From Verrucomicrobiota bacterium (GTDB lineage: Bacteria > Verrucomicrobiota > Verrucomicrobiia > Limisphaerales > UBA11358), in the NCBI GenBank assembly GCA_050010675.1, contig JBEKKN010000010.1:5648-69647 (forward strand): 64,000 nucleotides of DNA. The letters are read 5' to 3'. Made by a program: the position numbers and the translations under genes. Shown piece by piece: positions 56,059 through 60,000 of this stretch. The notes under the pieces are model-generated. The model did not search any database, was not told the DNA's origin, and saw only the letters and a program-made list of their open reading frames with translations. Numbering within the stretch: position 1 is the stretch's first letter; each line of letters starts with the position of its first letter.

Positions 56059-57003
56059 ATGTCATCGGCACTGAAATCACTTCGGGCCCTGTCCGACCCA
56101 ACGCGCCTGCGCATGGTGGCGCTGCTGGAGCGGGAGGAACTGTCGGTCAATGAGTTGCAGGAGGTCACGCGGCTCGGGCAGTCGCGCATCTCCACGCACT
56201 TGGGCCTGTTGCAGGACGCCGGGCTGCTGCAATCGCGGCGCGAGGGCAAGCGGACGTTCTACAAGTCGAGCCCGCCGGCCGACGGCGCGGCGCGCGAACT
56301 CATCCAGCTGGCGATCCGCGGGGCGAAGGAACTGCCCGAGTACGAGGGCGACCAGATCAATCTCAAGCGCATCCTCGCCCGCCGGCGCGAACAGGCGCAG
56401 GTTTATTTCAACCAGATTGCCGGCCGTTTCGACCGGGTCTATGGCCCGGGCCGTTCATGGCAGGCGTTCGGGCATCTGCTGCTGCGGATTCTGCCGCCGC
56501 TCGTCGTGGCTGATCTGGGCGCGGGCGAAGGCTTGTTGGGCGAACTGCTGGCGCGCCGCTGCAAAAAGGTCATCGCCGTGGACAATTCGGAAAAGATGGT
56601 GGCGTTTGGCGCGGCCAAGGCGAAGAAGAATGGGCTGAAGAATCTGGAATTCCGCCTGGGCGATCTGCAAAACCCGCCGATTGAACCGGGCGGCGTTGAC
56701 CTCGTGATTTTGAGCCAGGCCTTGCATCACGCGGCGGCGCCGGCCCAGGCAATTGCCGCCGCGTACCGGATTCTCCGGCCGCGCGGGCAGATCATGATTC
56801 TGGATTTGCTCAAGCACAACTTCGAGAAGGCACACGATCTGTACGGCGACCGCTGGCCGGGATTTGCCGAGAGTGATTTGCATCGCTGGCTCGAAGACGC
56901 CGGTTTCAAGAAGATCGAGATCAGTGTGGTGGCCGGTGAAGAACAGCCGCCGCACTTCCAGACCATCCTGGCCGGGGCGGAAAAAATTAGCATTAAACCT
57001 TAA
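56059..57003 (+). CDS. sahR: ArsR-HTH + SAM-binding methyltransferase-domain regulator (SahR-like)
   Basis: [26 protein letters not shown] motif I; divergent from metK-ahcY. Confidence 0.8.
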
Positions 57004-60000
57004 ACTGTTCGAACGCACCGCTGACAGGAAGCACCCATCCATTTTTAAGTGAAAATGGTTTAGATTCTTTCAAAATAAAATTGTTATCAATTTTGTAGTG
57101 GCTTTGAAAGGATCCGGTGTCTGGATTTATTCCGCTTATAAAGTGTAACTCAAAAGGACGTCCTGATGAGACTATATCAAATTGAGCGGCACTCAGGTAT
57201 ATTGATCTAGTTTTATTAAGATCAACTTCGACGCTGCTTTTCACTTCAATGAAGGTCCCGGTTGCGGGAATTACTATATCGCAACGATTATTCGGCGGTT
57301 GAACTTCGATTATGATTCCTTGGTTCTTAAAATAATCTTCCACTACTTTTTCAGCAATATAACCAACTGGTTTCGTCACAAAATTGACAAACCTGCCAGG
57401 TTGAACGATGACACGCTGTATAGCTCGGTCTTCCAAATGAGGAAGCATTTCTTCTGAATTTGTAGCGATTTTCTCGATTTCCGCTTTGTCCGCATTTGCA
57501 GGAACAGCCTTTACCACTTTAGTTTTCCCTTCACGTTGAATCGAAATTTCAATCTCGCTTTCGACGAGCAAGGCGGGATCAAAACTAGGCCAGGGAGCGT
57601 AAGCCAATGCGGAATGCGGAGTGCGGAATGCGGAATGAAGTTTGTCCCACAATTCCTCTGCCAGATGCGGTGCGAAGGGCTGGAGCAAAACCAAAAAATT
57701 GCGTAACGCAATCACCGGTTTTGTTTCCCATGTCATCGCGTCATTTATGAAAACCATCATGGCGGAGATGGCCGTGTTGAAACGCATTCCATCGAGATCT
57801 TCGGTGACCTTTTTGATACAGGTGTGAAGCGTCTTCAACTGTGCAGGCAATGGTTGCGCATTCTTAATCGCAGCGCTGAGTCGGATCTTTTTGAGCAGCT
57901 CCGCGCCTTTTTGCGGCTCAGTCGTCTCCGCCTGCTCGAATTCCGTTTCGCTTTGTTCATCCACGAACAGGCGCCACACGCGACCGAGAAACCGATAAAC
58001 GCCTTCGACGCCCTTGGTACTCCACGGTTTGACCATTTCGAGCGGCCCCATGAACATCTCATAAAGCCGCAACGCATCCGCGCCGAAATCTTTCAGGACG
58101 TCATCGGGGTTTACTACGTTACCGCGCGATTTTGACATTTTCTGGCATCTCGCTTCGACTCTAATGGGAAAACCTGATTGGTTCTTTAACATGAAATACG
58201 GTCCGACCTTTTCCACACTATCACTGCTAACTTTTACGCCTACCAGAACTTCACCCGTGTTCCTGTCTTTGCCAACGAGTATGTGGCCTGACTCAACAAT
58301 GTCCACAACCTGTTGGGCTGTTACCCAAGCATCATCGGGAATTCCGATAGGTTGCTCTGAACGGAAAGCATAGTATTCCATCTCGCCGAGGATCAGTCCC
58401 TGATTGACGAGCTTGAAGAACGGTTCCGGGGTCGAGACATGGCCGAGATCGTAAAGCACCTTGTGCCAGAACCGGGCGTAGAGCAGATGCAGAACGGCGT
58501 GTTCGGTGCCCCCCACATATAAATCAACTCCTGGCGTTTGTAGCGGCGGTCTGTGACCGTCGCTGACATTTTCTGGAGTATGGCGGCGGTCACAGACCGC
58601 CGCTACAGAACCCATCCAATATTGCTCGGCTTCCTGGCTGACGAAGGCGGTGGAATTTTTGGAGTCGAGATAGCGGAGATAATACCAGCACGAACCGGCC
58701 CATTGCGGCATCGTGTTGGTTTCGCGCACGGAACCATCCGGCAGATTCACCCAATCCTTGGCGCGGGCGAGCGGTGGTTCACCGGTGGCGGTCGGCTTGT
58801 AATCGGTCAATTCCGGCGGCAACACCGGCAACGCGGATTCAGGCAGGGCCTCGTGATAGGACTGGCCGTCCTGGCCTTTTTTCCAGACAATTGGGAACGG
58901 CTCGCCCCAGTAACGCTGACGGCTGAACAGCCAGTCGCGCAACTTGAAGTTGACCGTTTTCTTGCCGAGGCCCTTGGCTTCCAGCCAGTCGGTGATTTTC
59001 TTTTTGGCTTCGGACGTCGGCAAGCCGGTGATGGAAATCTCCGGTCCGGTGGAGTTTACGGACGTGCCGTCTCCAACAAAGCCATGCCAATCCACTTTTG
59101 GATCGGGCGGTTGGACGACCTGAACGATGGGCAATTTGAATTTGGTGGCGAACTCGAAGTCGCGGGTGTCATGTGCCGGTACAGCCATGATGGCGCCGGT
59201 GCCGTAGCTGGCGAGAACGTAATCGGCGATCCAGATCGGGATTTTCTGGCCATTGACGGGATTGATGGCGTAAGCGCCGGTGAACACGCCGGTTTTTTCC
59301 TTGGCGAGTTCAGTGCGTTCGAGGTCGGATTTAACAGATGCCATCCATTGATATGCAACGATTGCGTCGTTTGGGTTCTTCGCGCTGCCGGTCCATTCTT
59401 TGAGCGTCCCTTCCGGCCAGTTGGTTGGAATTGCGCCCTTTCTCGTCATCTGATCAATCAGCGAGTGTTCCGGCGCGAGCACGATGTAAGTCGCTCCGAA
59501 CAAAGTGTCCGGGCGCGTGGTGAAGACGGTGATGGTGGGGACGGCGCGCTGCGCCGTCCGGTCGTCGCAGCGCGACGACCCTCCCACCTCAAAGCCCACT
59601 TCCGCTCCTTCGCTGCGGCCGATCCAGTTCCGCTGCATTTCCTTGAGTGAATCGCTCCAGTCAATCGTGTCGAGGTCACGCAACAGTTTTTCGGCATAAG
59701 CGGTGATGCGGAGCATCCATTGGCGCATCGGCTTGCGGACGACCGGAAAACCGCCCACTTCACTTTTGCCATCCACGACTTCTTCGTTGGCCAAGACGGT
59801 TCCGAGTTGTTCGCACCACCAAACGGGTGCTTCAGTAACGAAAGCGAGGCGTTTTGAGTCGCGATACGTGCGGCGTGCGGATTCGAGGTCTTGGTGGGGC
59901 GAGGCTGCTGACGAGCCGTCCCCGGAACCGGCTCGCGAGGACACTCGCCCCACCGGCTGTGATTCCAATTCCGCCGGATATTTCAGCGTCTCGATGGATT

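Follow-up and report, generated by a model that had tools for sequence, protein, structure and literature searches.

A leucyl-tRNA synthetase gene with a replaced 3' end and a NOV_C-like tail in a peat-soil verrucomicrobial bacterium: a possible homing-like cassette

Aminoacyl-tRNA synthetases are among the most conserved genes. The closest described systems to the synthetase gene studied here are the mobile open reading frame (mORF) gene hybrids of fungal mitochondria, described for atp6 of Allomyces macrogynus and for atp6, atp9, cox2 and nad3 of Glomus sp. (PMC3630166). In the account given there, an endonuclease cuts the allele that lacks the open reading frame (ORF), and repair copies the ORF together with a foreign C-terminal segment; the ORF lies in frame with the host gene in atp6 and nad3, and the native 3' end of atp9 has been fully replaced (PMC3630166). 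The DUF3883/NOV_C family has been placed in the PD-(D/E)xK superfamily and is found in numerous fusion architectures; Table 1 of the same source also lists I-Ssp6803I, a PD-(D/E)xK homing endonuclease (PMC3424549). Activities described for NOV_C domains are DNA nicking (HmaA) and that of a DNase in the antiphage protein Tiamat (preprint 10.64898/2026.09.30.754977). Here we analyse a stretch of 64,000 nucleotides (hereafter the window; contig JBEKKN010000010.1, positions 5,648 to 69,647, assembly GCA_050010675.1) from a peat-soil bacterium of the Verrucomicrobiota, in which the leucyl-tRNA synthetase (LeuRS) gene, leuS, ends in a foreign C-terminal domain followed in frame by a 127-residue tail (P0001). 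We tentatively favour the reading that this 3' end is a mobile, homing-like selfish replacement cassette, a bacterial counterpart of the mORF gene hybrids.

The product of the gene scored 939.7 bits against TIGR00396 (leuS_bact; cut-off 548.4) in an NCBIfam scan, and a Pfam scan matched PF13603, PF00133 and PF08264, with the editing and anticodon-binding domains present. It is the single leuS locus above cut-off in the window's genome (G000), the remaining matches being paralogous class I synthetases. G000 (94% complete) and the other carrier genome, G264 (75% complete), each hold one leuS, in the hybrid form. Past the usual LeuRS end (VNFV, 57377) the frame runs on for 127 amino acids (aa), over 56996-57376, to a TAA at 56993-56995, as an earlier note made from the letters of the DNA had pointed out. 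In all 19 relatives' loci examined, leuS stops 2–3 residues past the equivalent VNxV, and no match continues into the tail in 40 relatives; comparison of leuS 3' ends thus bears out that the tail is an extra domain, which tail-less relatives are without. GC content is 0.35–0.42 over 57000-57450, in the tail, and 0.55–0.73 in the flanks. The earlier note's description of the tail DNA as AT-rich (18 G or C among the 60 letters of 57061-57120) was correct on recounting, and so was the overlap that it saw between the leuS stop and the end of the convergent sahR-like gene, which amounts to 11 nt.

A lost stop, or a chimeric assembly joining leuS to unrelated AT-rich DNA, could produce such a gene; the composition shift is abrupt, and the source is a metagenome-assembled genome (MAG) of 148 contigs. 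Against such an artefact, three runs, each from a different study, yielded contigs (X4, X5, X11) that span the junction from 56900/56937 to 57600/57635 with 0–1 differing letters and no indels, and at least 0.67 of the stretch's sampled words are held by 18 rows from 17 metagenome studies of peat, wetland and soil. The same in-frame fusion is present in six further protein clusters from other assemblies. The frame also stays open in three lineages 25–30% apart in protein, with a ratio of nonsynonymous to synonymous divergence (dN/dS) of ~0.1 in the tail frame. Together, the other carriers' clusters, the open frames, the spanning contigs and the dN/dS refute the artefact, to which we give a negligible probability, and answer the concern about a lost stop that accompanied the first description. 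A metatranscriptome contig (X19), which covers just 56900-57124, says nothing for or against a fusion transcript.

The foreign DNA begins well upstream of the tail. In 20-codon intervals, GC content at third codon positions (GC3) was 0.55–0.75 through codon 999 and 0.20–0.45 from codon 1000 to the end, with a step from 0.55 to 0.25 at codon 1000 in the window. Two further cassette loci, L054 and L056, show the same step, so that a sharp break at codon ~1000 is seen in all three lineages available as DNA. The LeuRS C-terminal domain (aa 1000-1057) therefore has the composition of the tail; its GC3 is 0.34 in the window and 0.64–0.91 in tail-less relatives. Protein identity breaks at the same place. 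Between the window and 19 tail-less relatives it was 74% for aa 800-899 and 74% for aa 900-999, close to the 77% and 76% found among the tail-less genes themselves, but for aa 1000-1057 it averaged 40% (maximum 48%), against 69% among the tail-less genes (minimum 50%). Over these last residues the window is 81–83% identical to the other carriers.

All carriers share the left junction (...LLVESEIEI, followed by (S/P)IQREG), with divergence from about codon 1003 (57541), and L054 tracks the tail-less locus L017 up to this point. The cassette reads IQREGKTKV where tail-less genes have a conserved PVQVNGK(L)RDVIKV; this part of the native domain, which abuts the cassette boundary, is the most strongly conserved one, with [QS][IV]NGK in 41 of 44 tail-less rows. 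On the right, homology to the tail-less genome G284 returns ~6 nt past the tail stop (56991), within the last sahR codons, and blastn similarity to G284 is lost between 57636 and 56991. From the GC3 step and the identity of 40% versus 69% at aa 1000-1057, we conclude that a cassette of ~560 nt, made up of a foreign C-terminal domain and the tail, has taken the place of the gene's native C-terminal domain, its stop codon and the leuS–sahR spacer. The earlier note had let the foreign DNA start at VNFV; its start has to be moved ~58 codons upstream (~57541-57550), so as to include the C-terminal domain of LeuRS. At the cassette there were no flanking direct or inverted repeats of note of the kind that form transposon-like ends, no promoter-like sites and one terminator-like site that was not above chance.

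The cassette is rare, and its relatives are all LeuRS. A HMMER search of 1.84 billion representatives returned one true relative of the tail, P0002, a C-terminal fragment of LeuRS; six other matches were long repetitive proteins and were treated as chance. A 90%-cluster database (5.8 billion clusters) gave seven clusters, and every one of them is a LeuRS or part of one: besides the cluster of the window itself there are one at 97% identity and five at 69–70%. There was no stand-alone homologue of the tail among proteins of 69–230 aa. DNA loci with the cassette were L054 (from G264, a Verrucomicrobia subdivision 3 MAG), L055, which is identical to the window, and L056 and L057, at 70%; all have the GC3 step and one open frame. 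Among 163 genomes of the genus (species representatives, the unpublished G250 being counted as one tail-less genome), the full cassette was present in two, G000 and G264, while 65 matched the C-terminal-domain part only (34–47% identity) and 96 gave no match with this query. Among 401 genomes from 165 genera of the order, the tail profile matched G000 alone.

Carriers do not form a clade and are scattered among tail-less relatives. In the sahR tree (31 rows), three carriers fall in three places and the starred branches force three changes; carrier monophyly costs 160.6 log-likelihood units (approximately unbiased test, p-AU 1e-40), and the SahR of the window is 95% identical to that of the tail-less G284. 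In a tree of the leuS body (47 rows covering aa 650-999, with three duplicates left out), L054 groups with the tail-less L017 (91% identity; SH-like approximate likelihood ratio test, SH-aLRT, 98) and the window groups weakly with L056. Two changes are forced there, and carrier monophyly is marginally rejected (p-AU 0.040). Since co-conversion of the flanks would increase the resemblance among carriers, these tests are conservative. The cassette is also more similar between carriers than the 140 aa upstream of it, at 97% versus 83% for the window and P0010, 87% versus 73% for P0013 and P0014, and 87% versus 71% for P0002 and P0013. The cassette thus seems to move between related species, and its patchy, phylogenetically discordant distribution fits the selfish or homing passenger that the earlier note had envisaged.

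DNA identity between the leuS of the window and that of G284 is 87–88% at the 5' end and 76% beside the cassette, and 91.5% in sahR–metK; this dip toward the cassette, seen in one pair, is only suggestive. G264 (carrier) and G008 (tail-less) were considered as a clean presence/absence pair and rejected, their DNA being just 81–86% identical and leuS and sahR being separated by an additional gene in G008.

The tail is a genuine protein domain, constrained by purifying selection. Between the three DNA lineages its dN/dS is 0.07–0.12 at a dS of 1.0–1.6, and that of the imported C-terminal domain is 0.035–0.10. With neither a Met nor a conserved internal start, the tail is produced only by fusion to LeuRS. 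A candidate internal ribosome site (AAGGG...GTG) upstream of V1011 is present in the window and L056 and has GTA in L054; separate translation is not proposed.

Strong purifying selection on the imported C-terminal domain as well as on the tail would also be expected if the fusion benefited the host. A NOV_C-like domain, active or only nucleic-acid-binding, might add a function to LeuRS, for example through additional contacts with tRNA or RNA, a moonlighting role on DNA or RNA, or a role in defence, and spread by ordinary homologous recombination as a useful allele. That the hybrid is the sole leuS of both carrier genomes and is in frame in all seven clusters agrees with this explanation, as do the many fusion architectures recorded for DUF3883 (PMC3424549) and the existence of appended domains on bacterial synthetases, for example the aminotransferase domain of a methionyl-tRNA synthetase (MetRS; PMC7694997). 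A useful allele, however, would be expected to be commoner or clade-wide, and this one is rare (two of 163 genus genomes, 0 of 400 relatives in the order search). Host benefit also leaves the lasting foreign composition unaccounted for, and the gene context includes no defence or RNA-processing gene: the sahR-like gene adjoins metK and ahcY, and a prepilin-like gene is also among the neighbours of leuS. We consider this explanation somewhat unlikely. The same neighbourhood, together with weak, single-member matches in PADLOC (best E 5.8e-4), lends no support to a tRNA-sensing defence or toxin module, which the earlier note had offered as an alternative to a selfish or homing passenger.

The best, and only consistent, family signal of the tail is NOV_C (PF13020, formerly DUF3883). 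Scanned singly, three of five tails gave sub-threshold NOV_C matches (best E 0.0052). In a feature search of the ESM-Atlas, 30 of 30 matches of the tail were NOV_C clusters (0.96; 197 of 256 features); without NOV_C, the next matches were other PD-(D/E)xK families, at just 0.81–0.82. Aligned by hhalign against 27 NOV_C domains (27 of 30 loci fetched from genomes of the same order, the near-copies L029, L044 and L049 being dropped), the five tails gave a probability of 33.7% and an E of 4.4e-4 over 64 columns. A rerun scored 27.6, whereas 200 column shuffles averaged 11.4 (sd 2.2, maximum 21.3; 0 of 200 reached the score) and the reversed query scored 11.5. The alignment places D33 of the tail on the invariant D of NOV_C, I43-E44-V45-K46 on the invariant IEVK and S62..Q65 on T.NE; the near-invariant E of helix 1 falls on F16, with E13 and D14 two to three residues off. 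All five aligned tails have, without variation, the residues that had been singled out from the sequence (helix E, D, IEVK, S..Q). D33 (57278-57280) and E44-V45-K46 (57239-57247) put the putative catalytic D33, E44 and K46 at LeuRS residues 1090, 1101 and 1103. No LAGLIDADG, GIY-YIG, HNH or I-Ssp6803I-type signal was found in the tail by Pfam, and there was no credible match among PDB sequences. PHROGs gave weak matches in single members (best E 0.027). On these comparisons the tail is best described as a NOV_C-like, putative PD-(D/E)xK domain, and we do not call it a member of the family.

Genuine NOV_C domains are common in the order (45 of 151 genomes; loci L024-L053), mostly at the C-terminus of frames of ~1150–1250 aa or ~290 aa.

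Under the homing-like reading, the tail would be a PD-(D/E)xK nuclease whose cutting of tail-less leuS alleles powers the spread of the cassette, or did so in the past. Its target would probably lie in or near the conserved PVQVNGK-coding site that borders the cassette, and the cassette's own copy, altered to IQREGK at that site, would resist cutting. With a carrier allele as repair template, the nuclease and the resistant C-terminal domain would then be copied together. Simple deletion of the cassette would be barred, as an essential enzyme depends on the part that it provides. In its strongest form, which we consider doubtful, this would be a new type of bacterial chromosomal homing cassette: a NOV_C-family endonuclease, made only as a LeuRS fusion, that cuts the PVQVNGK site and spreads by gene conversion with a cleavage-resistant, functional tRNA-binding domain, its loss by deletion being prevented.

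Several observations weigh against the homing-like cassette. Translation of the tail has to begin at the leuS start, 3 kb upstream, so an incoming fragment could not express it until it had recombined, and classical homing in bacteria sits uneasily with this. No relative of the tail was found in IMG/VR viral contigs, phage and plasmid records gave only generic matches to the LeuRS C-terminal domain (34–43%, e.g. Listeria leuS), and no donor, phage or plasmid copy of the cassette was found in these three sources. There is no remnant of a native C-terminus downstream, the leuS stop lying 0–4 nt from, or overlapping, the sahR end in the three lineages. The rejection of carrier monophyly in the leuS body is marginal, and an equally patchy distribution could arise if a useful allele spread by ordinary homologous recombination. 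Lastly, dS between cassette lineages is saturated (1.0–2.2), yet GC3 is low in GC-rich hosts; simple residence in GC-rich genomes does not explain this persistence, which may point to a low-GC reservoir that has escaped notice or to selection on composition.

The assignment of the tail also counts on this side. Neither Pfam nor NCBIfam returned a match above threshold: the tail falls below the Pfam gathering cut-off for PF13020 (22.1 bits), the window's own tail gave no NOV_C match up to E 10 in the Pfam scan, and at 1e-5 PF13020 has no match in G000. The invariant G of NOV_C (of GyD) is R31 in the tail, and its N-E is A64-Q65. AlphaFold2 reached a pLDDT (predicted local distance difference test score) of 33.9 for the tail alone and 32.4 with the five-row alignment, with no confident fold; because both values are low, the fold is left unconfirmed. 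To our knowledge, NOV_C is not a homing-endonuclease family. The earlier note's assignment to a PD-(D/E)xK/DUF3883 nuclease therefore stands in part: NOV_C is the closest similarity by ESM-Atlas, sub-threshold Pfam, hhalign and the D...ExK pattern, and family membership and fold do not follow from it, with a score below cut-off, two invariant columns lost and pLDDT near 34 and 32.

The substituted family-invariant positions and the failure of AlphaFold to give a fold are what a domesticated or dead remnant would show, that is, a captured nuclease ORF that is now inert and kept for the folding or stability of the imported C-terminal domain. The tail is also very divergent from all NOV_C members, none of which was matched in the exhaustive sequence search. 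Yet D33, E44 and K46 do not vary among lineages that are saturated at synonymous sites, dN/dS is ~0.1 over the whole 127 aa and not just over a structural core, and the greater likeness of the cassette than of the neighbouring body between carriers points to continued movement. We therefore judge an inert remnant unlikely, and retain the homing-like cassette as our tentative preference.

Positions in the window are collected in Table 1. Beside the right edge of the cassette, the last residues of the SahR-like protein vary between lineages (56985-57003 in the window): that of G284 ends in ...AGAEKRSGVSADRRKTSDA before the stop, and that of L054 apparently in ...GEK. The C-termini differ because the cassette junction falls in the final sahR codons. 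The leuS and sahR stops are 3–4 nt apart in L054 and L056, and tail-less relatives have tens to hundreds of nt of spacer between them. In the tail-less G008 (L096, ~8330-9100), an ORF resembling glycosyltransferase family 2 lies between leuS and sahR; the spacer is therefore variable in the genus even without the cassette.

Table 1. Features of the leuS 3' end and its surroundings, in positions of the window.
Feature	Position	Strand	Basis or remark
leuS	56993..60547	minus	1184 aa including the cassette; ORF and TIGR00396
Low-GC 3' replacement cassette (foreign C-terminal domain, nuclease-like tail, stop and ~6 nt)	~56987..57550	minus	edges approximate; ~560 nt
Foreign LeuRS C-terminal (tRNA-binding) domain, aa 1000-1057	57377..57550	minus	divergence and GC3
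C-terminal tail P0001, 127 aa; divergent, NOV_C/DUF3883-like, putative PD-(D/E)xK	56996..57376	minus	profile and feature similarity
Putative active-site strands, D33 ... E44-V45-K46	57239..57280	minus	alignment to invariant NOV_C columns
Overlap of leuS stop region and last sahR-like codons	56993..57003	both	11 nt; ORF coordinates
sahR-like gene (ArsR-type helix-turn-helix and methyltransferase)	56008-57003	+	convergent to leuS

This leuS carries repeats and further inserts. In the linker just upstream of the cassette (57606-57637) there is an in-frame tandem repeat of a heptamer, AATGCGG, in 4.6 copies, and L056 has another short repeat at the equivalent spot. Metagenome contigs break at this repeat and the summed depth rises to 51–88, so the repeat is widespread in these samples. 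At 58540-58606 (leuS aa ~651-672), an inverted pair of an element like the repetitive extragenic palindromic (REP) sequences, GTAGCGGCGGTCTGTGACCG[C/T]CGC, adds ~22 residues in frame; the genome has 17 copies at up to 2 mismatches, versus 0 for the reversed control, and a related copy lies in the leuS–sahR spacer of the tail-less G284. Just before KMSKS (~58148-58381, aa ~723-800) is a window-specific insert of ~78 aa with a GC content of 0.45–0.49, which is missing from the carriers P0010, P0013 and P0014, has no DNA homology in G284, G264 or G008 and matches no Pfam family. Two short GC-rich in-frame inserts (~59530-59570 and ~59870-59960; aa ~325-338 and ~197-225), likewise not in P0010, P0013 and P0014, may be further repeat-derived insertions.

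In the open-access full text of PMC and bioRxiv, we found no report of a LeuRS–nuclease fusion, of nuclease fusions to synthetases or of a bacterial in-frame 3' homing cassette. The elements themselves, mORF-type gene hybrids and NOV_C fusions, are already known, and the combination described here is a new variant. Should the tail be an active site-specific nuclease, the strategy of the mORF gene hybrids would be found in bacterial chromosomes as well, and NOV_C/DUF3883 would join the homing-endonuclease families. The locus would then offer a clean natural case of a selfish element secured by supplying an essential protein domain, as well as a compact candidate sequence-specific nuclease. If the tail serves LeuRS instead, this would be a rare and recent modular replacement of the tRNA-binding domain of a synthetase, with a bearing on how tRNA recognition modules are exchanged.

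The organization of this locus matches that of the mORF hybrids as described in PMC3630166: the core of the host gene is followed by a foreign copy of its C-terminus and then by an in-phase, nuclease-like ORF, the inserted C-terminus is far more divergent than the native one, and close relatives are without the insert. Here too, presence is sporadic and the phylogeny is discordant with host and flanks. Unlike those hybrids, the cassette sits on a bacterial chromosome and in an aminoacyl-tRNA synthetase gene rather than in a mitochondrial respiratory gene; its tail is NOV_C-like PD-(D/E)xK, with putative activity, and not LAGLIDADG or GIY-YIG. It also leaves no native C-terminal remnant, although such a remnant is not obligatory for an mORF hybrid, because the native end of Glomus atp9 was fully replaced too (PMC3630166). 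With the NOV_C domains of Tiamat and HmaA, as far as these are described (preprint 10.64898/2026.09.30.754977), the tail shares the predicted order of a helix, a strand with D, a strand with hEVK and a helix starting with (S/T)xx(E/Q). It differs from NOV_C in having ~45 extra C-terminal residues with a conserved end and in its partner, which is LeuRS and not one of those recorded for the family, an ATPase, helicase, methylase or kinase. I-Ssp6803I shows that a small enzyme of the restriction fold can home with a long target site; it differs in being intron-encoded in a tRNA gene and in belonging to PF11645, with no sequence similarity to the tail detected. The aminotransferase domain of Mycoplasma penetrans MetRS is, like the putative nuclease tail, an extra enzymatic domain on an essential synthetase in a narrow lineage; in contrast to the tail it is N-terminal and metabolically linked, and the account of it does not report a mobile cassette (PMC7694997). 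In the LeuRS studied here, unlike that MetRS, the host's own last domain has been exchanged as well.

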